A stretch of 64,000 nt of DNA from Minutocellus sp. GHC0000111 (taxonomy: Eukaryota). Positions 1-46,475 of this stretch are shown here, piece by piece. The stretch is taken from assembly GCA_977018835.1 (NCBI GenBank), contig OZ361256.1, positions 1,860,001-1,924,000 of the forward strand. Direction: 5' to 3'. The notes under the pieces are model-generated. The model saw only the letters and a program-made list of their open reading frames with translations, searched no databases and was not told the origin of the DNA. Positions within the stretch are counted from its first letter, which is position 1. Every line of letters starts with the position of its first letter. A program made the translations under genes and the position numbers.

Positions 1-440
1 ATGTAGTAATCTGCAAGTCTTTGTGCCAGGTTGGGTTTTCTACCCGAAACTTTGAGATGCAACGATTTGAGCTCCGCCTTGAGATCATTCGCTGGCCGCA
101 GACGCAATTCCTCAAAGAGCTCCTGACGTTCGGCGGCATACTCGTCATGTTCGTCGTTGTGACCAGCGGATGATGAAGAACGTGACTTCATCCTTTGCAG
201 TCGTTCAGCTGCCTTTTGCATCTCGTCTTTGGCTGCATCAGTGCTTCTTGGTGAAGCATCGAGGCAAGTGCCTGTGTGCCTCAAAATACGAATATTCTCC
301 TCATTGTAGCGATGGACATGCTTTCGTGAGGACAGTGTGTCGACTGAAGAAAAGGCATTCGACGGATTCGTTTGTGACATAAAACATGCCAAAAATAAAA
401 TGGCCGATAATGACGAGGAATCTGCTAATAATCGAGGCAT
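1..440 (-). CDS. SAP-domain protein, 5' part (runs off window start); possible bipartite plastid-targeting N-terminus
   Basis: Manual translation from the ATG at 440 is open to base 1: MPRLLADSSSLSAILFLACFMSQTNPSNAFSS...LRLRPANDLKAELKSLHLKVSGRKPNLAQRLADYY. The last segment fits the SAP helix-extension-helix consensus. Absent from the ORF track because its stop lies outside the window. Confidence 0.7.
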   Translation of the reverse strand, partial: MPRLLADSSSLSAILFLACFMSQTNPSNAFSSVDTLSSRKHVHRYNEENIRILRHTGTCLDASPRSTDAAKDEMQKAAERLQRMKSRSSSSAGHNDEHDEYAAERQELFEELRLRPANDLKAELKSLHLKVSGRKPNLAQRLADYY

Positions 441-31341: not shown

Positions 31342-31838
31342 GATGAAGCAAATATCTTGTTGGGGTGTTGGGGTGTCGGGAATTCGTGATGCGGTACAAG
31401 GAAAGTCAGGTACGAGGCAGGAGCGTTCAGCATCAGGTCAAGAAGTCACCAAGCAGCAACGCAAGGTGGCGTGGGTCGCGGTCGGTCGGTGCTTGGAAGG
31501 TGACGGACAGACGATATCAGCACGTCGTCTTCTTCCCTATCTCGAACTGAGATCCTTCAAAACGATAGAAACAAACGAAAACTGAGATGAGGAGAAGAAC
31601 CAGGGTTAGTACGAGAGGTAACGTCGGTGGCAGGTCGGGGCTCATCCGATCCCGTTGGGGCCAGTTGGCGCGGCTGGCGCGGCATCCGGTGGATGTCGTT
31701 GCTCTTCGGTGGGCCCGCTATCCCTGACGTGGCACTATGGTGGGTCCATCTCATTCCGAAAGGTTGCAGGAGATCTAAGCGACGAGCATCTGCACGAAAT
31801 GCAAGAATATTAGTCAACAGGGATAAGGTGAAGTCAGG

Positions 31839-33095
31839 ATGAATAACAAAGGCAACAAAGAAGCGTCTTTGCGCGCTAATTTGGACAACGCCTTGGAACT
31901 CCTCTCGGACGACGTTGGCAGCGTTTGGGCGGTCGCCCAGCGGCATGCGAGCATACCGATCCTCGAGAGGCCGCCATCTCCTCTCACCTTTCTTCGAGAT
32001 TACGTCCATCCGTCCAGGCCATGCATCATTCGCAATTGTATACCGGCACAAGATCGAGAGGTTGTTGGCGACGAGAGGCCGCTTATTTTGACTCTCGATG
32101 ATTTGGTCGACATTTGTGATGAGAAGAAAAGTGCCGGCCCATGTACTTCTAGTGGCGACGAAGGCGATATTATGCTCACGTGCGATGTGACGCCCGATGG
32201 GCACGGAGACTGCGTCCGAAGTGTGGTTGGTTCGGATCTAAATCCATTGGGAGAACCGGTGGGAATGTTTGTCAAGCCAGAAGAGCGACGAATGGCACTG
32301 AAACATTTCCGCGACGAACTTCGGATGGGACGAGAGGAGTGGAAGCGAAACAATTGCAATTGCAACGAAGAGGTAAATGACCAACGTGGCCTGGCCACAT
32401 TCAGCACCAAGCCCAATACTGCGACGACTCGAAAGCGTCCGGTGATATATTACTCTCGGCAGAATGACTGTTTGCGAACGGAGCTGAAAAGTTTGCTTGA
32501 TGCGAACATATTTCCAAGTGGCTTTGAATTTGCAGAAAAGGCATTTGCAACGGGGCCTCCGGATGCCGTGAATTTATGGATTGGAGATCAGAGAGCTGTG
32601 TCGAGCATGCACAAAGATCATTACGAGAATTTGTTTTACTGTCTAAGTGGAGAGAAGGTTTTTACTCTGCGCCCTCCTGCCGACATACCCTTCGTGCACG
32701 AGGGAGAGTTTGTGAGTGGCACCTTCAAATTCGTTGAATCATCTGCGAACGACGAGCCCAGTGCTGGTCGTGGTGATGACAAACAGCGTTGCTGGATTGT
32801 AGAGCCAGATCGCTGTGAAGATGGCAATGAAATACAAAAGATTCGCTGGATAGAACCTGACATAACACAACAGGATGCAGCGGAGCACTTCCCTCGCTTG
32901 AAGCAGGCGCATCCAGTCGCGGTGAAACTCGGCGAAGGAGAGATGCTTTACCTACCGGCACTTTGGTACCATCGGGTGACGCAGAGTTGTGAAACGGTGG
33001 GAGTAAATTGGTGGTATGATATGCGCTTCGATTCTCCGTCGTGGTGCTATTTCAATTTCCTTCAGAATCTGAAAGTGCCAGTAGAGAGCATGTAA
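31839..33095 (+). CDS. JMJD7: JmjC-domain protein 7-like 2OG/Fe(II) oxygenase (Cupin_8)
   Basis: FLRDYVHPSRPCII, VTPDGHGD, YYSRQNDCL, PDAVNLWIGDQRAVSSMHKDHYENL (HxD), LYLPALWYHRVTQ, VNWWYDM. Confidence 0.9.
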   Translation: MNNKGNKEASLRANLDNALELLSDDVGSVWAVAQRHASIPILERPPSPLTFLRDYVHPSRPCIIRNCIPAQDREVVGDERPLILTLDDLVDICDEKKSAGPCTSSGDEGDIMLTCDVTPDGHGDCVRSVVGSDLNPLGEPVGMFVKPEERRMALKHFRDELRMGREEWKRNNCNCNEEVNDQRGLATFSTKPNTATTRKRPVIYYSRQNDCLRTELKSLLDANIFPSGFEFAEKAFATGPPDAVNLWIGDQRAVSSMHKDHYENLFYCLSGEKVFTLRPPADIPFVHEGEFVSGTFKFVESSANDEPSAGRGDDKQRCWIVEPDRCEDGNEIQKIRWIEPDITQQDAAEHFPRLKQAHPVAVKLGEGEMLYLPALWYHRVTQSCETVGVNWWYDMRFDSPSWCYFNFLQNLKVPVESM

Positions 33096-33325
33096 AATTG
33101 TAAAGAAGTGCATGTAGAACTCTGGTTGCTCCAAACATGGAGAATCTGTGTTTCTGAATGAATCGAAGCTGAATCCAGGGGGATGTCTCGAAACCCTGGC
33201 GCGGAGGGGTTCCGCCTGGACGGACCATGGACGGACCAAACCAAATCGTGCTAAATCGCGGCCGCAGAAAAAATCTGTCAGATCAAAATCAAATTTGGCA
33301 CCACTCATCAATCGACCAACCGCAT

Positions 33326-33479
33326 CACGAGCCATGGAAGAAGACGATCCCTTTAGCTGCTTCGGTGGAGGAGATGATGACGACAGTGTGAACGACGACG
33401 CCGCACGAGCCATGGAAGAAGACGATCCCTTTAGCTGCTTCGGCGGAGGAGATGATGACGACAGTGTGAACGACGACGC
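33326..33479 (+). repeat. 78-bp direct tandem duplication including the start codon
   Basis: CACGAGCCATGGAAGAAGACGATCCCTTTAGCTGC...AACGACGACGC occurs at 33326 and 33404, with one synonymous difference (GGT/GGC). Confidence 0.95.
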
Positions 33480-34731
33480 GCTGGTATCTGCTCCCAGCGC
33501 AAAAGCTACTCCAATCGCGACCAGCTCAAAGCCTCATCAACACCAATCTACTACTCGTGCCGTGAACCCAAAGCGAAGCGAGGATTGTGGTGTGCTTTCG
33601 TACCATCATGGGACTGAGGTAGCCATGTTGGCACATGTGCGAAACGCAGTTGCCGATCTTGTTTTGCCGCCGTCGGCAAAAGACGGCTCGCCGTCGGAAT
33701 GGGAAGGATCGGCGGCCGATCTCGCATCTGCGGCTGTTCTTGCCGCAGTCGATGAGTTCTGTCAGAGCCGTCACTGGATGATGCACGTCGGGCCAGAGAA
33801 GGGAAGGGTCATAACTCAAGTACTTCGTGATGCCATTAGAAAGCGAGACTCAGATTCAGGGAGGACCTTTGTGTGCATCGAGTTAGGGACATATTGCGGT
33901 TATTCGTCGGTATTACTTGGGAGAACCTTACGAGAAGAGGCCGCCGCTGTGGCTGTAGCTGGTGAGGGAGCTACAAATCTTCAGTGTCAGTTGTATACCG
34001 TCGAGGTCAACCCTGCTTACTTTAAGATATCTCGAGAACTGATCAGGCTTGCAAGGTTAGAGGACACAATCACCTTGGTTGAGATACCAGTTGAGATCAA
34101 TGTCATGGAGACCGAGGATGCTGCAGCTGGTATTGTGAGCAATAGGATTTGGGCCGACGAGGCAAAGTTACGACGTCAACAACATGAGCATGATGAGCAA
34201 AGAGACGGACTGGCGTCTAGTTTACCAAAGATTGATTTTCTCCTAATCGATCATGATAAGGATGCGTACCGTACAGATTTGATTCGGTTGGAGCGGGAGG
34301 GATTGGTAAGAGCGGGCTCGGTTGTTGTTGCGGACAATGTGTTATTTGCACAGATAGACGATTACCGCCAATATGTCCAGAGCTTAGAGAAGAAGGGCGT
34401 AGTGACTACAGAGCTCGTCATGACTCAAATTGAATATGCTGATGAAGAGATATTGGAGGATGATGGAAGCAAAGGCAATGATGGTAGTGGCAGCGATGCT
34501 GGCGGTACAGAAGATGATCTGTTTCGTGATGGCATTGAGATCACACACTATAAGCGCAATCCTCTGGCAGATAAGGAGGATTGGTTGGACCGGAGTGCGC
34601 CAAGATTTGCAGCGATGAAGCTTCGAGAAGAAAAGGCCAAGCAGCTGGCGGCGGTCCGAAGTAAAAAGAGTATGCCGTTAACTCGCAGTGCTCGCTGGGC
34701 TAGTGATGGTCGCACCGAGCAGCTCAAGTGA
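33334..34731 (+). CDS. Catechol O-methyltransferase-like SAM-dependent methyltransferase
   Basis: AVDEFC...WMMHVGPEKG, CIELGTYCGYSSV, YTVEVNP, DFLLIDHDKDAY, GSVVVADNV. Confidence 0.85.
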   Translation: MEEDDPFSCFGGGDDDDSVNDDAARAMEEDDPFSCFGGGDDDDSVNDDALVSAPSAKATPIATSSKPHQHQSTTRAVNPKRSEDCGVLSYHHGTEVAMLAHVRNAVADLVLPPSAKDGSPSEWEGSAADLASAAVLAAVDEFCQSRHWMMHVGPEKGRVITQVLRDAIRKRDSDSGRTFVCIELGTYCGYSSVLLGRTLREEAAAVAVAGEGATNLQCQLYTVEVNPAYFKISRELIRLARLEDTITLVEIPVEINVMETEDAAAGIVSNRIWADEAKLRRQQHEHDEQRDGLASSLPKIDFLLIDHDKDAYRTDLIRLEREGLVRAGSVVVADNVLFAQIDDYRQYVQSLEKKGVVTTELVMTQIEYADEEILEDDGSKGNDGSGSDAGGTEDDLFRDGIEITHYKRNPLADKEDWLDRSAPRFAAMKLREEKAKQLAAVRSKKSMPLTRSARWASDGRTEQLK

Positions 34732-34822
34732 GGTTGTGTTGAATGAATGCCTCGTCGTATTTGACTTAAGTTAATTTAGATTGATTATGATGAAATATGT
34801 TTACGACAAATTGATGCACCCT

Positions 34823-37504
34823 TCAACCAATGTCCATTGTACCGGCCTTGCCATCGTCCTTGGGGTTGAGGTAGTAAAATGTAAGTGTGAAGCGCTTCTC
34901 CTCTCGGTCCCAGTTGGTAACGAACCGTCCCTCTCCCCGATCGATTGGCTCGGCGGGGACCTTGAACGCCACGGTCTCGTACGGATCGCACGCCACGAGC
35001 AGATACTGATACCGCCCATCCGGGGGACTTTCCACCCTCTGCTCGTAGGCCGACATGAAGCGATGCCGGGGCTGGACCGACGCGGGATCGTCGACCTCGG
35101 GATAGTGCAGGTAGAAGGTGAGGCACCGCTGGTTCGTGGCCGGATCGCGGGATTTCGTCACCTCGTATCCCGGGCGGCCGATCCTCACCCGCGCTTGTTC
35201 CTTGGCGGCGGCCGAGCCCGACGAGACCGTCAGCGGCATCGGCCCGGCGCCCCCCTTCCCCTCGAGGGCGGCCCGCTTCTTCTCCATGGCGGCGCGCTTG
35301 GCCAGCCCGGCCTGGTGCTTCTTGCCCTGCGTGTGGGCCAGGTAGTTGGCCTCGTTGGTGTGGAGGGTGAGGCAAAGCTTGCACTCGTAGCTGCCGAGGT
35401 GGTTTCGCATCAGGTACGGGTCCTTGGCCAGGTCGACCGACTCCAGGGCCAGCTGGCGGAGCCGCTCCTTCCGGTCGCGCTCGGCGTTGGCCGACGAGGC
35501 CATCCCGCCGCCGCCGAACTTGGACCCGACGCGGTTCTGCCGGTCGGTTCCGCCGAGGAGACGAAGGCGAAGGGTGAGATGCACCTCCCTGGTTGCGCTG
35601 GTGTGTGCATGTGCATGCGCATATGGCGACGCCACGCCACATCCGCCCGGGACCGCGGCGGCAGAATTCATCCGCTCATACTCTTCCCGTCCGAATCCCT
35701 TGCCTCCGTGGACAAAGTAGGCCGAGGCTGAGGCTGTGGCCGAGGCTGAAGATGTGGCCGAGGTTGGAGGGACGGATGTCGGTCCCTTGAGCGGTCCCAG
35801 AATGGGCGTTACCGTGGCACTGGCACCGGCACCGGCACTGATACCGGCACTTGGTGGTGGGACATGGGACGACGATGATGCCGCCGACGATCGGCGGGAG
35901 GCATGGCTTGTAGACGAGTCGGAGGACGAGGAGTCGGCCAGGGTCCACGTCTTGCGTCGCTTGGAAGATGAGGCAGAGGCACCGGTAGGTTCGGCCACAT
36001 CGGTATCCCTGGCCTCGGCCGCATTGGCCTCGGCCGCATTGGCATCCTTGGTATTGGCCTCGGCCATATTGGCATCCTTGGCCGTATCTTGGGCCTCGGC
36101 CATGGCGAGGAGGGTGCCGAGGCCAATGTCGAAGTCGGGGGTGACGGACCGTCCCTTGTGGCCGCCAACGCCAACGCCAAGGCCAAGGCCAAGGTTGGCG
36201 GCGGCGGATCTGCTCCTCCCCTGGTGCTCGTCCTCCTCCTCTTCGCCGCCCTTGAGCTTCCCAAAAAACAAGTCGCCGTCGTCGTCGTCGGTGGAGGAGG
36301 TGGTGGTGGAGTAAGAGGACAGCGTCTCGCTGGTCCTCTTGTTGTTCACGGCCACCCTGCCGGGACTCATCCGCTGCAGGACGGACGACGAGAAGAAGGC
36401 ATCCGGATCGTCGTCGGCGTTGGCATTAGTCGCATTGGAGGAGGAGGAGGAGGGCGGGGGACACGACGAGGCCCTCCTGTTTGCCCCATCTCCTTCTGCT
36501 GACACCCTGGGCCCCGTCCCGCTCGCCACGTACCGCGCCGCGGCCGTGGTACTTCTAGTAGCATTGGCCGCGTTCGCCTTCCTCGACGCGTGCACCTCGT
36601 ACTCGTCCCGCCGGGCGGCCGCCTCGAGGAGGACCCGGACGAACTCGTCGTACGGGGCCGTCCTCGACACCCGGGCCAGCGCCGTCCGATCCCGCGGCGT
36701 CTTGAAGACGTACGTTACCAGCGTTGGTGACGATGATTCGGCGGCAGTATTGGCATCTGCTGAAGAAGCATGTGCCGATGCAGTTGTGGGCATTGGACTT
36801 CCATTATTACCGGTGCCGGTATTCGTAGTGGAACTCATCATTGGCTGCTGCGGAAATGCCACGCCGCAAGCATCGGCGGTACCCGTGCCGGTGTCATCGG
36901 CCCCGTCAATTTCCATGGCGTCGCCGGCACTGGTACGAGAGGCGGCAGCAACAGCACTATTGGTAGCGGCTGACGAATTGGAGGCGGAGACGGCGGAGAC
37001 GGTCATGGACGAGAGGGAGTGGGCGATGGCGGCGGCGGCGAACGACGGATGGACCGTCAAAGCGCAGGGCAGCAGCTGCTGCTGGCGTTTTGGCGTTCTT
37101 GCTGCTGCTGCGGTGGCTGCGGTGGCCGCAGCCGCAGCCGCTGCCGGTGCTGCCGCCTGCCCACCTCCTCCCAGTGCCGCGTCATGATGCAATGGACGAT
37201 GATGATCTTGTCCCGATGCTGGCAGTATCCTCGTGCTGCTGCCTCGGCCGTCGTCGTCAGTCTGGTCCGCCGCCATCCTCGTCTGTCCTTTCGGGGCTGT
37301 TGCAATTTCTCCGAAACGGACATGCTGATGCGGCTGAGGATGCGGCTCCTGTTGCTTTTCCAGAGACACTGTCCTCGCCGCTGCCGGCGGCGGCGGCGGC
37401 GGCATACTAGTATGGCTGGAAGGCACCGATGCTTCTGCGCCGGACGATGACAATGGCGGCAGCGGCAGCCACGTGGGGGACGGGGCCCCGGCGCCACCGA
37501 GCAT
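34823..37504 (-). CDS. SF3A2: Splicing factor 3A subunit 2 (SF3a66/Prp11) with ~650-aa N-terminal extension ending in a ubiquitin-like LRLLGG motif
   Basis: C-terminal 241 aa: DRQNRVGSKFGGGG, RKERLRQLALESVDLAKDPYLMRNHLGSYECKLCLTLHTNEANYLAHTQGKKHQ (matrin-type Zn finger), IGRPGYEVTK, PRHRFMSAYEQRVE, PYETVAFKVP. Single stop-free ORF; the 5' extent is less certain than the SF3A2 part. Confidence 0.9.
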   Translation of the reverse strand: MLGGAGAPSPTWLPLPPLSSSGAEASVPSSHTSMPPPPPPAAARTVSLEKQQEPHPQPHQHVRFGEIATAPKGQTRMAADQTDDDGRGSSTRILPASGQDHHRPLHHDAALGGGGQAAAPAAAAAAATAATAAAARTPKRQQQLLPCALTVHPSFAAAAIAHSLSSMTVSAVSASNSSAATNSAVAAASRTSAGDAMEIDGADDTGTGTADACGVAFPQQPMMSSTTNTGTGNNGSPMPTTASAHASSADANTAAESSSPTLVTYVFKTPRDRTALARVSRTAPYDEFVRVLLEAAARRDEYEVHASRKANAANATRSTTAAARYVASGTGPRVSAEGDGANRRASSCPPPSSSSSNATNANADDDPDAFFSSSVLQRMSPGRVAVNNKRTSETLSSYSTTTSSTDDDDGDLFFGKLKGGEEEEDEHQGRSRSAAANLGLGLGVGVGGHKGRSVTPDFDIGLGTLLAMAEAQDTAKDANMAEANTKDANAAEANAAEARDTDVAEPTGASASSSKRRKTWTLADSSSSDSSTSHASRRSSAASSSSHVPPPSAGISAGAGASATVTPILGPLKGPTSVPPTSATSSASATASASAYFVHGGKGFGREEYERMNSAAAVPGGCGVASPYAHAHAHTSATREVHLTLRLRLLGGTDRQNRVGSKFGGGGMASSANAERDRKERLRQLALESVDLAKDPYLMRNHLGSYECKLCLTLHTNEANYLAHTQGKKHQAGLAKRAAMEKKRAALEGKGGAGPMPLTVSSGSAAAKEQARVRIGRPGYEVTKSRDPATNQRCLTFYLHYPEVDDPASVQPRHRFMSAYEQRVESPPDGRYQYLLVACDPYETVAFKVPAEPIDRGEGRFVTNWDREEKRFTLTFYYLNPKDDGKAGTMDIG

Positions 37505-38015
37505 TGTCTGCACCTGGCTGTCTTCTTCTTCTTCTTACGATGCCTTCTGTTTTCAATTGAATTCGCCGCGCGGGGCCGCATGCAAAATGTCGAATGACGC
37601 TTCGGGAGGTGGTGCGTGGCGGGACAAGGGACGGGACGCATGACGTCATAAAGATACCATCACAGACCCTCAAGGGCCGTTTCCACTTGAGGTTGGCACA
37701 GGGTTGACGAAAACGGGAACAGGCCTGACTGATGACTTCGCCGAGAGCCGAGATGATGGACGGACGCCTGCAACATTCATTCATTCGTCCTCGAATGAGT
37801 CTCGAGGTCACCCCTCCTTCCTACTCCTACCTCTCGCTTGCGACTGATTGCTAGTCACCTTGTTCCTTTGTGCTGCTGCATCGTAGCGTGGCATCGCAGC
37901 ATCGCATCGCAACGCCGAACCGCGGTAGGGTAGAAGCACAACACAAGTCCAGTCCAAAAGATACGAAAGATCCTTCTTTCGATATCTTTTGAATCTTTTC
38001 ATTCCGCCGACATTG

Positions 38016-39893
38016 ATGCCGATGCAGATGCCAAGAGTTCCCATCACCGGTGCCGAGGACATTGTCACCATACGAGGGCGGCACCTGTACACCGGTGCCA
38101 GCGGCGGCTATGGGCAGCGGCAGCGGCAGCGGCAGCGCTTCTACATGACTGGCATAGCATTTCCCACGCCTCCTCCGACTCAACCTCAAACTACTTCAGC
38201 TACTACTGCCCGCAACAACCCATCCATTGCTGCACGACGCAATCCCATCCTCGACAAGCTGCTCCATCGTTCTCGTGGCCAGGATACTACCAGCAATGAT
38301 GATGATGTTGGTCAGCATAACTCATCACCACACCTCAATCTGACGGGTTGGAATGCGGTCCTGGATCAGCTGGCAAAGGAAACCACCGTCAACACCGTCC
38401 GGATATACGAGATGGACTGCCGACGGGATTGCAGCGCCTTCCTCAACCATGCGGCCGACCTGGGCATATACGTGCTGGTACCCCTCACGACGCGGTCCGG
38501 CGATGGGGTCTTGTCCAGAGACGACGTGGCCCCAAAGTGCTATCCCCGAAAGCTGTACGAGTACGGCGTCCAATGTCTGGACCGGTACTGGGACCATCCC
38601 AACGTCCTGGCGGGCGTGGTGGGCAACGAGGTGATGAACAAACTGGACAGTTGGCGGGCCGCTCCGTGCGTCCGAGCCTTCCTGGACGACATGGCGGCGT
38701 ACGGGAAGCACAAGGCCTCCAAGGTGAAAAAGGGGGGTGGTGCTGGTGGTCCAGACGCCGGTGCAAGGACCGAGGCGATGCCACTCATGTATGCGACGCA
38801 GCACGACAGTCCCAGTGCCGAGTTCCCAACCGACGATGCCATGAAATTGACGCTGGATTATTTGACTTGTCGTGATGATGCTGCGAATACTGCTCGTGGG
38901 CCTAGTGGTAGTACTGGAGCAGCAGGAGGGTCGTCGCATCGCAGTCCCTTCATCTTCGGCATCAACATTGAATCCTGGTGCTCGTCGCTGCAAACATTCG
39001 AGTACGAGGAAGATGGTCTCACGGAGTCGAGTTATCATTCGCTGTGGAACACTATGCGGGGAGGCAACCTGACCAAAACGACCATGGACGCGGTGACGGG
39101 CGTCAAGACGACTGTTGAGATTCCCCGAACTATTTCGCCGTTGCCAGCATCGGTCCCCATAGTTTTCAGTGAGATGGGCTGCAGTCGTTTCTCCTTCAAC
39201 AAGGACAATGACGTTACCCCCAAAATGATACGAGATTGGAGGCAGATACCTCTGGTGTCAGACGGTGGGCCCATGAGCGATGTGTTAAGTGGGTTCGTTG
39301 CCTATGGGTACGATGGAGGTGGCAACAAGTACTTTCGAATGATGGGCGGGACAAACAAGTGGGATGGATTCAACCCTCTTTCGTCGGACTCTGAAGATTA
39401 TCAAAACTTTTGACTTCGGCTGGAAGAGATTGCAGCAAATGAGACAGACAATCCCCATGTCGATGGCACTGGTGACGGACATGGAAGAGCTGGAGCTAGT
39501 CCAAGTTGCGAAGAAACCCTTGAGAGCATTCGCACGGTGTGGGATATTGAGTTGCGACGACAGCTTCGAATGCCATCTTATTTCGACCGAGATCATCGCC
39601 CGTGGTTCCCATTGCTTCCATCATCCAACAAACGTGCAAATCAACAACTGAAGCTTGAAGAGATTACGTTTAGATGGGATTCCATTGATTCCAGTTTCTT
39701 TGATTGGGGAGCTTCTTTGCTCATGGTGCTGGTTGTGGTGGTACCGGTACTGATTTTCGTGAAACCAAATTTTACTCCTACTAGTTCGACTCCGGCGAAG
39801 TGCCCAGAGGAAAGGACGAGCGACAATCTAAGAACTCTCAATGAAGAGAGCAAGTTGCTGGCAAATATGCAGAGACAACCCGATTACACATGA
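38016..39893 (+). CDS. GH72 beta-1,3-glucanosyltransferase (Gas/Gel-like) with C-terminal TM segment; in-frame TGA at 39411-39413
   Basis: VTIRGRHLY, FYMTGIAF, VNTVRIYE, GIYVLVPL, VVGNEV (acid/base Glu), FSEMGC (nucleophile Glu). The same frame continues 159 codons past the TGA, to a hydrophobic helix and a stop at 39893. No signal peptide seen; start uncertain. Confidence 0.8.
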
Positions 39894-41340: not shown

Positions 41341-44300
41341 ATGGTAAAAGGATACGGAACCGTCAAGGGGGGAGTCTCAGCAGGCGTAAAAGCCGACGAA
41401 TCTGATCCTCGCAGCGGCAACAACGATGAGGAGCGGAAACCTCTCCTCAGCGGCATACATGTAAGCAACGAGAAGGCACCGTCGTTCTTCAGCAGCCTCA
41501 CATTTGCGTGGTTCTCTCCCCTCCTCGAGATTGGCAATCGCAATGGCACGCTGGAACCGACTGACATAGCGTCTCTGCCGCTTCCCGATGACTGCACCAC
41601 CGCTGCCTGTATGGAGGCATTCGATGAGTGCTGGGCAGATGAAAAGTTGCGAGCGGAACAGAGAACGGCAGATGAGATTCGTCGGAAGCGACGCAAGAGA
41701 AGACGACAGTATCAGGATATTGATTTAGAGGGAAGTTCTCGTTCGAAGGACGACGACGATGGCACTGGTACCGACATGTCCGATGTGGACCCACACGAAA
41801 TGCCGTCACAACCATTCTTCGAGCCAGTTACCGCTGATCCGATAATACCAACGCAGCCATCGTTGGCACGTGCCTTGGCTTGGGCATTCGGCAAAGAGTT
41901 TGCCAAGGCGGGGCTTCTGAAGCTTTGTCATGATCTACTCATCTTCGTTGGGCCATTTGTCCTGAACCAAATCATCTTATTCCTACGAGACGAATCGGCC
42001 CCTCTCAGTCGAGGACTGTACCTCACATCGGCGGTGACCATAAGCCAGCTGCTTATGTCGTTCTGTCTGAGGCATTACTTCTTCCGATGCTACCTCGTAG
42101 GACTGCGAGCGCGTACGGCTCTGGTGGTGGCAATTTATCGCAAGGCATTGGTACTGTCTGCGTCAGAAAGGCAAAAGAGAAGTGCCGGAGAAATCGTCAA
42201 CTTGTTGTCCACCGATGCGCAACGCATTCAGTCCTTGATGACATACCTTCATGCCACATGGTACTCCTTTGTGCAGATTGGGCTGGCCCTTTACTTTTTG
42301 TGGCGTCAACTGGGCCCAAGTTGCCTCGCCGGCGTCGTTATCATCGTAATTATGATGCCCATCACCCGGGCCGTCGCCAGCTGGATGGGGGGTAAGCAAA
42401 AACGCCTCATGAATGCCAAGGATGAGCGCGTCGAATTGAATAACGAATGCCTCGGCAGCATGAAGGTGCTCAAGATGCAAGCGTGGGAGGAACCGATGTA
42501 CGGTCGTTTGCTCCACCTACGACAAGTCGAGCTTCGCAAGCTTTATGATTATGGTAAGCGCAGAATAGTTGTATTCAGTCTTTCAAGTATGTTGTTGGAA
42601 GCTGGGCGTTAGCACTTGAATTTTGGATTTTTGGTTTATTTCAAAGCATATCTCACCCCCGCCCTATCATTTCCAATTTTATAAACGATTTTCCAGTCGT
42701 TGCGAACAGTCTCAGCATCATGCTTTGGAATGCGGTACCTCTCCTCGTGGCGTTGTCGACGTTTGCTGCATACACACTATCTGGGCATACATTGGACGTG
42801 GCGTCTGCCTTGACGTCGTTGTCCTTGTTTGAGATACTCAGATTCCCCCTCTTCATGCTGCCGCAGATAATCAATAGAATGGTGGAGGCCGGTGTGTCGA
42901 TTGATCGCATCCAGTCCTTTTTGCAGTGCAAAGAGCATGCAGCGCCGAGAACCGATGAAATTGAAGAAGACTACGGGGTCAGGATGGAAAATGCCACGCT
43001 AATATATGGAAGCATCAAACCCGAGTTCGATGCCGCATCCATGAATCGCCACGGTGGTCAGGCGAACATTCTCGCGAAGCAACTCCACGAGACGCGGTGG
43101 GAAGTTGCCTTGCTCAAGGCACAGCTATTTGAAGCCGATGAAAAGATACGATCTCTTGCGATCGGAGAATCCGTTGAAACACCGCAATCGAGTCCCTCCC
43201 CCCTGGCTCTGAAGAGAATAAGCCTCGAGTGCAAACCAGGACGCTTCATTGCCATCGTCGGACATGTCGGTTCGAGCAAAAGCTCGCTTATCAATGCAAT
43301 CCTGGGCGAGTTGCAGCTGTTATCTGGAACCCAATCTGTCAAGGGTAGACTCGCTTTGTTTTCACAGACTCCGTTTGTCATGAATGACAGCTTGCGAAAT
43401 AACATCACAACCTTTGGAAAGCATGGAGATGAAGAGTTCGATGCAAAACGATATGAACGTGCCATCCGTGCCTGCGCCCTTGAGCCCGATCTACGAGCTC
43501 TTCCGGGAGGAGATTTGACGATTATAGGAGAAAAGGGCATAACACTCTCTGGCGGTCAAAAGGCCCGTGTCGCATGTGCTAGAGCAGTTTACTCCGGAGC
43601 CGATGTCTTTCTCCTCGATGATCCACTGGCAGCCGTCGACGCGCACGTGGCAACCCATCTGTTCTCCGATTGCATTGTAAAGGAGATGCTCTATGGCGGT
43701 AACACTTCTACCAGCAAGTCACGGTGTTCATCGGTTATTCTTGTAACCAACGCCGTGCAATATTTGAACAGCCCCGAGGTCGACACAATAGTTGTGCTGA
43801 GAGATGGAGGAACTGTCGAAACAGGAACATTTAGCGAGCTAAGTGCTCGGAATGGGCTCTTTTCCTCATTTTTGTCTGTCTTGGCCGACGAGACTTCTCA
43901 AGCAGAAAGAGAGGATTTGGTAGTATTCAGTGATGAGAAGGAGGCTCGGTCATCTCTGGCCCTGACGGGGGCAAGGAGCTCTTGCTCCATATCTGCTCTT
44001 GGAGATGTTGATCAGCCTGATGTGTCGAAGGTGCTATGTCCAAAACCCAAGCTTAATCATTCTCCAACGTCAGTGCACCGAAAGAGCCTTGTTGTTGATA
44101 ACGTTGCAGCTACCAACGCCATAGTCACCTTAGAGCCTGGCACGCCAAAGGACGATGCAGGGAAAGTTCCGGCACCACGCGCAACTACTAGTTCCAATAG
44201 TACAAGCATTGCCAAGGAAGAAAGAGAGATTGGGCACGTCAGTTTCAAAGTGTATTTATCATGGGCAAAAGCAGCTGGAGGAGCTCATGTCTTCGTGGCG

Positions 44301-46475
44301 ATTATATCAGCGTTCTCTTGCGTCGAAGCCGTGAGTGTTTTATCGAAGTGGTGGCTTACACACTGGAGTGAGAACGGAGGAGGTCACCAGCTTCGTTTCC
44401 TTGCCATCTATGCGATTATCAATCTCTCCACTATCCTGTTGACTTTGGGTCGATTGCTGTTGGTAATGTTTGCTGGCTTGAGAGCAAGCCGGACGATCTA
44501 CGTGGAGCTCTTGCATTCCGTCCTTGGTGGAAAGATGTCATTCTTCGATCAGACGCCCCTGGGGAGGATCATCAACAGGTGCGTTACGGTATGAACGGAA
44601 TGGGCAATAATGTCCGAGGTATTTTGTGCTTCATCGCAATAGCAGTCTCTCACCTCTCTCCTTCTTTCCTTTTGTCATTTCCGCAACGCTTTCTAATAGA
44701 TTTTCCCGAGAAATGTACACCGTTGACGAAGAGCTCGTTTCGACTCTCCGGTCTTACCTCAATTCGTTGATGAGCGTAATCTCTGTCGTCTTTGTCATAT
44801 CTTCCGTCACACCAATGTTTACCCTCTGCTTGGTGCCAATTATCATCTTCTATCTACACCAACAAAATTACTTCACAACGACATATCGGGAAATCAAGCG
44901 CATCGACAGCGTCAGTCGAAGTCCAATTTACGCCCTCTTGGGAGAGACACTCGATGGTGTGACGACAATCCGTGCCTTTCGAGTCCAAGAGCTCTTGGCA
45001 AATCGCATGATCAAGCTGATGGATAGGTAAGGCCGATGCTTTCGAGAATTATTCCATTATCTGTCTTCAAAAGTTGATTTCTTCTCGTCGAAACATTCTA
45101 CTCAAAGACCTCCTCCTTACTCTACTTTTCCTTACGTTTGATATCTTCAGTCAACAGAATGCGTACTATCTCACCTGCACAGCTCAGTGTTGGTTGGCGG
45201 TCCGACTTGAGCTCGCTGGCACTTTGATAATCTTCTTCGCCTGCCTTAGCGCTGTCCTGCAACACCTATCCCAGGCTGGGAACGAGAAATTTTCCGGACT
45301 TGCTGGGCTGTCCATCAGTTTTGCCCTGAGCGTAACCCAGTCGCTCAATTGGACCGTTCGTATGGCTTCTGACCTCGAAGCCAGCTTTATCGCTGTGGAG
45401 CGGGTAAATCAGTATACGAATGAGACGACGGGTGTCCCTCAGGAAGCCAGTAGAGAAACGAACGTTGATGCAAATGCTGGCTCCGACTGGCCGCGCAACG
45501 GGCACATCGTGTTCAAGGGAGTTTCTCTTCGCTATCGAGAAAACTTACCCCGAGTCCTAAAGAAAATCGACCTGGACATACGGCCCGGATCCAAGGTGGG
45601 CGTCGTAGGCCGCACGGGAAGTGGAAAGGTACGTCCATTGTTGTATGTTGTGGAATTGCTCTCTTATTTCCTGCATATAAATCTTACTCGCTGCCTTGAA
45701 TTCTCAACACTTTATCTTTTACCTTCACCCAATAAACAACACGCAGAGCACGCTTGTTGTGGCACTCTTACGTCTCGTTGAGCTTGACGAAGGTACCATT
45801 GAGATTGATGGCATTGATACATCAAAACTGGGGCTTAAAAAGCTCCGCTCCGGCATCGCCATCATACCACAAGATCCAACATTATTCAGCGGGACAATTC
45901 GAAGCAATCTGGACCCCTTTGGTGAGCACGACGAAGCACGCCTTTGGTCCGTCGTTGATCGTGTCGGTTTACTTTCTTCCGGTGGCATGTCCCGTGCCTC
46001 TTCTGTCTCGAGCTTTGGTGTGCTCAGCACCGCTGGGTCAGATACCGGAATCGGGAACAATGGCCCAGCCACCACCTCCGGCCATGCCGTTGGAACCAGT
46101 GCAGGAATCCGCTCTCTCAACAGCCCCGTCGCGGAGGGTGGGTCGAACCTTTCGGTCGGACAACGGCAGCTCCTGGTCATTGCCCGTGCCCTCCTATCGC
46201 AGTGTCGTGTCGTGGTGATGGACGAGGCCACGGCCTCCATCGATGCCTCCACCGACGCTCGCATCCAGCAGGTGATGCGTACCGAATTCCGAGATGCCAC
46301 GGTCCTGACGATTGCGCACAGGATCAATACCATTGCTGATAGCACTCATATCCTGGGGTTGGCGGATGGCAAGGTCGTGGAGTTTGACAGGCCGGCCACT
46401 CTTTTGGGCAGAGAAAATGGGTTGTACAAAGGTCTCGTGGAGGCATGGGAAAGGGAAAACACAATGGCAACATAA
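41341..46475 (+). CDS. ABC transporter subfamily C (MRP-like), 5 exons
   Basis: Introns 42554-42696, 44579-44699, 45027-45150 and 45629-45746 (all GT-AG, frame-restoring). NBD1 GHVGSSKSS/LSGGQKAR/LLDDPL; NBD2 GRTGSGKST/LSVGQRQ/VMDEATA; FFDQTPLGRIINRFS. Confidence 0.95.

Follow-up and report, generated by a model that had tools for sequence, protein, structure and literature searches.

SF3A2 of a diatom is encoded behind a decayed, split ubiquitin fold: a probable precursor form shared among stramenopiles

We analyzed a 64,000-nucleotide stretch of contig OZ361256.1 from the diatom Minutocellus sp. GHC0000111 (hereafter the window) and found that its gene for SF3A2, a core subunit of U2, a small nuclear ribonucleoprotein (snRNP), extends upstream, in frame and unspliced, into a leader that ends in Gly-Gly directly before the SF3A2 part. 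The Gly-Gly and the residue register behind it are conserved across stramenopiles. The register and the residue usage at the junction suggest that SF3A2 is made as a precursor behind a decayed ubiquitin and is cut after the Gly-Gly by a deubiquitinase, a reading to which we assign a probability of roughly 80%.

Results

Gene structure and SF3A2 domains

On the minus strand, an open frame runs from 37534 to a stop codon at 34823–34825; its first ATG, at 37504, gives a protein of 893 amino acids (aa). The open reading frame (ORF) contains the following features.

34823–37504, minus strand: single-exon ORF of leader plus SF3A2 (893 aa if Met1 is used), comprising a low-complexity extension, a split ubiquitin fold and SF3A2
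36719–37504, minus strand: low-complexity N-terminal extension, aa 1–262; no Pfam match, RNA coverage to about 37500
36599–36718, minus strand: fold part 1, strands 1–2 and main helix, aa 263–302; hidden Markov model (HMM) of diatom leaders E 8e-14, predicted local distance difference test (pLDDT) 95, 32/40 identical to the homolog P0122
35732–36598, minus strand: insertion in the fold of about 290 aa, aa 303–591; mostly disordered, Ser/Ala/Asp-rich, pLDDT mostly <50
35660–35731, minus strand: fold part 2, strands 3–4 and short helix, aa 592–615; HMM E 7e-10, pLDDT about 94, 21/24 identical to P0122
35549–35590, minus strand: last strand and Gly-Gly tail, aa 639–652, from structural alignment with ubiquitin; 14/14 identical in P0121, P0122 and P0004
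35519–35548, minus strand: predicted mature N-terminus, T1-D2-R3...K10; Lys10 (35521–35519) in register with Lys10 of human and yeast
35315–35389, minus strand: matrin-type C2H2 zinc finger, aa 706–730 (PF12874)
34889–35182, minus strand: SF3A2 beta-sandwich domain, aa 775–872 (PF16835), with a fold like that of Prp11/SF3A2 and the cactin C-terminus

SF3A2 makes up the last 241 aa of the ORF (Pfam: PF16835, E 1e-35; zf-met, E 1e-7), and phmmer matched human SF3A2 in the Protein Data Bank with an E of 5e-80, pairing D2 of the query with D2 of the human protein. It is a full-length ortholog of SF3A2/Prp11 (SF3a66), having the N-terminal arm with Lys10 (counted from the residue after the Gly-Gly) and the matrin zinc finger followed by the PF16835 beta-sandwich. 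It differs from SF3A2/Prp11 in that a leader replaces Met1: Thr at the junction occupies the place of Met1 in SF3A2 of other eukaryotes. The named homologs closest to the ORF among the best 120 listed were from diatoms, and its nearest relatives in the tree (P0001, P0003, and P0121) fall within the diatom clade.

The start codon is uncertain, being either 37504 or 36916. The database protein P0121, from a close strain, begins at the equivalent of Met197 (36916), and RNA contigs reach 37441–37532. The region upstream of Met197 may be a 5′ untranslated region (UTR).

Conserved register at the Gly-Gly junction

The original prediction, made from the letters of this DNA, had placed REVHLTLRLRLLGG (35590–35549) directly upstream, in frame, of an SF3A2 N-terminus with Thr for Met. 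Coordinates and domain searches bore this out: the protein reads ...HLTLRLRLLGG and then, with no linker, TDRQNRVGSK (encoded at 35548–35519). A ubiquitin-tail-like pattern, set after the homologs had been seen, has a single occurrence in the window (127,996 residues in six frames), and it lies at this junction. Among 23 strain differences judged from the 40 rows shown, all four inside aa 639–652 were synonymous, and all three in aa 627–638 were non-synonymous.

Three homolog searches, with the best 120 matches taken from each, gave 359 representatives, of which 208 carry Gly-Gly at the junction (190 as GG-X-D and 18 as GG-M-X-D). The rest comprise 38 M-X-D starts, 54 M-D starts, 35 sequences without the motif, and 24 others, three of which are Gly-Gly forms missed by the pattern. 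When cluster members were included (399 proteins, 225 with a Gly-Gly junction), the conserved Lys was residue 10 after the Gly-Gly in 204 of the 225, residue 11 in 18, all of which have M-T/A/V after the Gly-Gly, and residue 13–14 in three belonging to one cluster. The exceptions to the register (P0248, P0366, P0367, and P0388) are one cluster with 3–4 extra residues between Gly-Gly and Met and, in a second cluster, a single member with GC in place of GG. Two fused loci (L047:1-366 and L075:481-957) have Gln after the Gly-Gly and one extra residue before the conserved arm; the leader of L075 is compact (73 aa).

The residue behind the Gly-Gly also follows a pattern. Ile stands there in 139 of the 190 GG-X-D forms, and it never follows Met, either in the unfused M-X-D forms (0/38) or in the GG-M forms (0/18; 0/56 together), where only Val, Ala, or Thr is found. 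Methionine aminopeptidase removes Met ahead of small residues. Since Val, Ala, and Thr permit this removal, fused and unfused forms would end up with the same free N-terminus, one residue before Asp. This pattern and the Lys register are what would be expected if the chain is cut after the Gly-Gly and the position of the free end matters.

The position of the free end does matter in the yeast activated spliceosome (Bact), in which the K1 site is occupied by Lys10 of Prp11 and Tyr3 of that protein is stacked against G-1 of the 5′ splice site (PMC12773743); human SF3A2 shields the 5′ splice site (PMC10208982). Tyr3 and Lys10 of Prp11 sit in the Bact active site, and a cut after the Gly-Gly would put the conserved Lys at position 10, as in human and yeast. 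The residue at mature position 3 (35540–35542, minus strand), which corresponds to the one stacking on G-1 in Prp11, is Arg in diatom SF3A2 (DRQNR), Phe in human, and Tyr in yeast; most other retrieved stramenopiles have Phe, Tyr, or Met there.

Unspliced transcripts across the junction

Ten RNA-labelled runs matched part of the stretch, and four of them (X1, X2, X5, and X6) were aligned to the gene. Three runs from two studies yielded contigs that pass unspliced through the junction and extend more than 31 nt beyond it on either side (X2, 35252–35775; X5, 34819–35877; X6, 34818–35877), in agreement with the transcript continuity expected from the original prediction; the X1 contig, with only 30 nt on one side, was excluded from this count. 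One X6 record of 2,570 nt spans 34818–37441 and shows only strain indels and replacements, with no GT..AG joint. An ATG exon spliced near 35549, the alternative raised with the original prediction, did not appear: no spliced joint near this position was found in the RNA contigs aligned to the gene, and X5 and X6 splice GT..AG introns elsewhere in the window. These joints also served as a control for DNA carry-over (45024–45149 in X5, X6, and X1; 45626–45745 in X5 and X6; 42552–42696 in X5); run X15, of a kind not on record, had none of them. A fourth joint further along the window, at 44579–44701, has TG..GA ends as reported. Three candidate introns inside the gene (35877–35921, 36724–36881, and 37244–37301) were rejected as strain differences because letters were replaced and the ends were not GT..AG.

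These data bear on the explanation that the upstream frame is not translated with SF3A2, owing to a hidden intron, a short transcript, or a non-AUG start at the junction. There is indeed no ATG at the junction, and the nearest one upstream (35671, Met612) lies inside the fold and is the start used by gene callers for P0001–P0003. The unspliced contigs, the purely synonymous variation in the tail, and the conservation of the three fold segments against a diverged insert all speak against it, and we regard this explanation as largely refuted, the least probable of those considered here.

A split and decayed ubiquitin fold

In diatom homologs with short leaders, the elements follow the order strand-strand-helix-strand-helix-strand, with Gly-Gly at the end; the 122 diatom leaders of at least 75 aa range from 79 to 445 aa. 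In the AlphaFold model of the homolog P0044, the leader is folded at a pLDDT of about 90 apart from its insert and resembles ubiquitin and NEDD8 (Foldseek E about 1e-3, template-modeling (TM) value to target about 0.7); a VIA comparison gave Z 7.7 and a root-mean-square deviation (rmsd) of 2.6 over 73 aligned residues. An HMM of short diatom leaders matched the window protein twice, at aa 258–320 (E 8e-14) and aa 583–652 (E 7e-10). In the AlphaFold model of aa 263–893 of the window protein, both fold pieces have pLDDT >90 with a low-confidence stretch between them, and model residues 1..389 superpose on ubiquitin 1..75 (Z 7.3, rmsd 3.1, 72 aligned). On the basis of this superposition, Gly651-Gly652 (35554–35549) correspond to Gly75-Gly76 of ubiquitin. 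Compared with the insert of P0122, which is unrelated, that of the window protein is identical at only 30 of 289 positions. The original prediction had noted a close resemblance of the motif to the C-terminal strand and Gly-Gly of ubiquitin; the resemblance stands, and the strand proved to be the end of a split fold (aa 263–302, 592–615, and 639–652) rather than an isolated segment.

The case for homology with ubiquitin is made by profiles, as the Z values by themselves show only a beta-grasp fold. The diatom-leader profile aligned with the non-diatom leaders (hhalign 95.5%, E 1.4e-8), and PF00240 scored above cut-off in nine of nine non-diatom leaders picked from Pfam-annotated rows, three of them at 101–111 bits. 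This chain, from the window to the diatom leaders and on to the PF00240-positive leaders, shows that the leader descends from ubiquitin. An ESM Atlas search with a diatom leader gave leads below 0.9 only, some of the ubiquitin family, and was not counted.

In the 50 other non-diatom leaders, which match the leader of the homolog P0252 at only 11–39 of 76 positions, the ubiquitin core is kept (Leu43 in 47/50, Pro37 in 42/50, and Leu50 in 41/50) and the surface is lost (Ile44 in 3/50, Val70 in 3/50, Lys48 in 9/50, and Lys63 in 0/50). A kept core with a decayed binding surface fits a disposable protease substrate better than a modifier or a binding module.

The leader could instead stay attached as a binding module. 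Uncleaved ubiquitin-like (UBL) domains usually lack a terminal Gly-Gly, which we count against this possibility; in the window protein the Gly-Gly abuts residue 1 of SF3A2 in exact register with no linker, and the surface residues of the leaders are not conserved. A retained leader is also at odds with the N-terminal residues of Prp11 occupying the active site (PMC12773743). In its favor, SF3A1 carries an RNA-binding UBL domain (PMC6795144, PMC8833184), uncleaved like that of Rad23-type proteins, and the tail departs from LRLRGG in many diatoms. On balance, we consider a retained module improbable.

Still less probable is that the main role of the fusion is to supply free ubiquitin, or a modifier that can be conjugated, as in Ub-eL40 and Ub-eS31. 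Near-intact ubiquitin precedes SF3A2 in three homologs (P0249, P0252, and P0257), which may be how the fusion began; these three lie on short contigs and could be chimeric. The low identity of the other 50 non-diatom leaders to that of P0252 and the insert of ~290 aa in the window leader argue against such a role.

Several observations weigh against a deubiquitinase-processed, ubiquitin-derived leader. The Z values of about 7 are within the range of common folds, and PB1 and other beta-grasp domains score alike. Pfam detected no ubiquitin in the window leader, nor in any of 63 diatom members when the cut-off was relaxed to E 10. On its own, the non-diatom HMM gives the window leader a marginal score (E 0.007). 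The Pfam miss is a limit of sensitivity, bridged by the profile comparison. Among 217 upstream segments, all 190 that matched a tail-free leader profile have the Gly-Gly, and 22 of the other 27 do not. This count speaks for the proposed precursor and is less circular than the invariance of the Gly-Gly within the leader sets, which is by selection of those sets, yet it too is partly circular because the profiles were trained on leaders bearing the Gly-Gly. The homolog rows are phylogenetically non-independent. The window tail has Leu at the position of ubiquitin Arg74, and 28 of the 122 diatom leaders have Pro at that of Arg72, so a canonical deubiquitinase is not guaranteed. Finally, the longest RNA contigs belong to strains that are related but differ by many substitutions and indels, and rare isoforms are lost from contigs.

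Distribution, gain and loss of the fusion

The conservation of the upstream Gly-Gly that the original prediction called for was found in diatoms and in other stramenopiles. Among the matches listed, fused forms occur in diatoms (Chaetoceros, Seminavis, Nitzschia, Cylindrotheca, Fragilariopsis, and Asterionellopsis), brown algae (Ectocarpus, Choristocarpus, and Discosporangium), xanthophytes (Heterococcus and Tribonema), oomycetes (Pythium insidiosum, Lagenidium, Albugo, Saprolegnia, and Thraustotheca), and Chrysophaeum, Fibrocapsa, and Mallomonas, with groups including a pelagophyte, a raphidophyte, and a synurophyte. The diatom carriers include Seminavis robusta, Fragilariopsis cylindrus, Nitzschia inconspicua, and Chaetoceros tenuissimus. 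Judged from these homologs, the fusion is widespread in stramenopiles. SF3A2 of animals, fungi, and plants among the matches listed starts with Met, and no named fused form outside stramenopiles was found in the representative-library search, in which polyubiquitin-like repeats took up part of the results. Animals and fungi also gave long SF3A2 fusions, which were set aside because they have Met rather than Gly-Gly at the junction and look like merged gene models.

Unfused stramenopile forms lie between fused ones in the tree. They comprise a Thalassiosirales clade (support 1.00), diatoms scattered elsewhere, and Phytophthora, where the absence of the leader is that of the annotated proteins. 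The tree (FastTree, 207 thinned rows, 216 columns) has weak deep support. In 16 Met-start diatom loci, a stop codon lies 1–39 codons upstream of the ATG, and no hidden or intron-separated leader was found upstream of these loci, several of which have <300 nt of upstream DNA. Of 19 loci whose upstream DNA was searched for a leader, L048 alone gave one (E 2e-8); it is a GG-type locus. Leader loss is real at least in the 16 loci, given the upstream stop and the lack of a leader signal. In L048 (2600–3500) and L050 (1–163), the leader is interrupted by introns, with leader-profile matches in upstream exons.

The GG-T-D of the window reads GG-M-T-D in its close relatives P0004, P0122, and L001, and the tree suggests that the window lineage lost the junction Met. 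In L003, an unfused locus whose protein equals P0011 (250/251), Met is preceded by a remnant that resembles the tail and ends in GE, and a stop lies 17 codons upstream; this is possibly a snapshot of leader loss or a 5′ UTR intron. The remnant (L003:2056-2113) is preceded by a branch-point-like CTAAC and CAG. The extra residue in some unfused diatom starts (M-V/A/T-D compared with M-D) may be a trace left by fused ancestors.

A cluster of 112 members in the ESM Atlas combines SF3A2 and zf-met, in 45% together with ubiquitin, and Oomycota is its commonest phylum; the domain layout is therefore already on record in databases. Other records start at the junction Met, and together with starts at an internal Met, as in P0001–P0003, these keep the fusion hidden.

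Discussion

Comparison with known precursors

A close precedent is Sde2 of S. pombe and human, a splicing factor with an N-terminal ubiquitin fold, in which a cut after Gly-Gly frees an N-terminus needed in the spliceosome; the enzymes are Ubp5 and Ubp15 (PMC9508853) and, for human SDE2, USP5 (PMC13572447). Sde2 is an accessory factor with intron specificity; it is fused in every case in which it occurs and has an essential Lys behind its Gly-Gly. Here, in contrast, the leader precedes a core subunit of the U2 snRNP, one that animals, fungi, and plants make unfused, the residue after the Gly-Gly is Ile, Met, Val, or Thr, and the leader is recognizably from ubiquitin itself. The window protein, with Thr after the Gly-Gly and no Sde2 Pfam match, is outside the Sde2 family proper.

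In the ribosomal precursors Ub-eL40, Ub-eS31, and FUBI-eS30 (FAU), ubiquitin or a diverged ubiquitin likewise precedes a subunit of a large RNP machine; removal of the leader is needed for assembly, and the leader acts as a cis chaperone (PMC8122580). FUBI is the nearest analog of a decayed leader. In the present case, by contrast, the partner is spliceosomal, the diatom leader has decayed past Pfam detection and tolerates inserts of hundreds of residues, and the fusion is limited to one supergroup among the named matches and was repeatedly lost. The algal ubiquitin fusions (Ub-NiSOD, Ub-actin, Ub-P1, and others; Sibbald et al. 2019, PMC6332867) are similarly lineage-restricted and often missed by gene callers, but according to that survey they keep a recognizable ubiquitin.

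With ubiquitin-fold precursors the window gene shares an N-terminal beta-grasp domain homologous to ubiquitin, a conserved Gly-Gly at ubiquitin positions 75–76 directly before the partner, and one mRNA and one frame across the junction, as judged from contigs of related strains. It lacks the near-invariant 76-aa ubiquitin of the UBA52/RPS27A type, having the ~290-aa insert and no PF00240 match, and its Gly-Gly and lack of a linker set it apart from type II UBL domains, which have no terminal Gly-Gly and are joined by a linker. The SF3A2 fusion would work like Sde2 and the ribosomal precursors but belongs to neither family.

Proposed processing and its possible regulation

We propose that translation yields leader and SF3A2 in one chain and that a deubiquitinase would cut after Gly652 (between 35549 and 35548), probably during or soon after synthesis, in a fast and constitutive manner like that of the ubiquitin–ribosomal protein fusions. 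The 241-aa product starting with T-D-R-Q-N-R would join SF3a, and its freed N-terminus would dock, as it does in yeast and human, within the activated spliceosome. The leader, ending in Gly-Gly, would likely be degraded, as are the SDE2 and FAU leaders in human cells (PMC8013793); it may be at most an aid to expression or folding in cis that is then discarded. Without Met after the Gly-Gly, as in the window, the fusion would be locked in with no need of a regulatory benefit, because the leader supplies the only start codon. With Met at the junction, the leader could be dropped.

A regulated switch of the Sde2 type is a different possibility, in which a specific deubiquitinase gates splicing-competent SF3A2, whose half-life is set by the newly exposed N-terminal residue (Thr here, Ile in most forms). 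The retention of the leader across oomycetes and ochrophytes, the preference for Ile after the Gly-Gly (139/190), and the large lineage-specific inserts, which could slow or tune processing, are compatible with it, as is the Sde2 precedent (PMC9508853). The residue after the Gly-Gly varies, however (Ile, Met, Val, or Thr, and Gln in L047 and L075), whereas Sde2 needs Lys, and unfused forms are several times nested among fused ones, with upstream stops and no leader-like sequence at those loci. We therefore consider such a switch unlikely, if less so than a retained module. In an equally unlikely form of this idea, SF3A2 with its ubiquitin cap would join the U2 snRNP and block Bact maturation until a dedicated deubiquitinase removes the cap. 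If so, there would be a protease switch on all splicing in diatoms, kelps, and water moulds, and a ubiquitin fold would be read while split by some 290 residues. The control of SF3a assembly by a deubiquitinase that the original prediction envisaged received no direct support, and the leader, having been lost several times over, is arguably dispensable.

Neighboring genes

Three plus-strand genes flank the fusion and have no link to it: a Cupin_8 (JmjC-like) gene (31827–33095), a methyltransferase (33118–34731), and a GH72 glucanosyltransferase (37929–39413). The methyltransferase frame has a tandem duplication of about 25 aa near its start.

Significance

No description of a ubiquitin–SF3A2 fusion was found in full-text searches of the literature. 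Term searches found no SF3A2/Prp11 in the text and supplement of the algal ubiquitin-fusion survey (PMC6332867), and no mention of such a fusion in the supplement of PMC8122580 or in the plant SF3a2 phylogeny PMC10049718; the passages of PMC11283556 consulted have nothing on the SF3A2 N-terminus. Within the literature searched, no earlier case was found of a core spliceosome subunit produced as a ubiquitin-type precursor. SF3A2 would thus be the first, and the fusion extends across an entire eukaryotic supergroup.

The feature is real, expressed, and conserved, and it places the theme of the ubiquitin-fold precursor on a core spliceosome subunit, with a leader that is unusually decayed and expanded. 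Gene callers truncate the protein at an internal Met, and misleading results would come from stramenopile SF3A2 constructs that start with Met or carry an N-terminal tag. The leaderless forms are natural controls for asking why such fusions persist, and the natural series, which runs from intact ubiquitin to a fold with hundreds of residues inserted, may reveal the minimum that a deubiquitinase must recognize.

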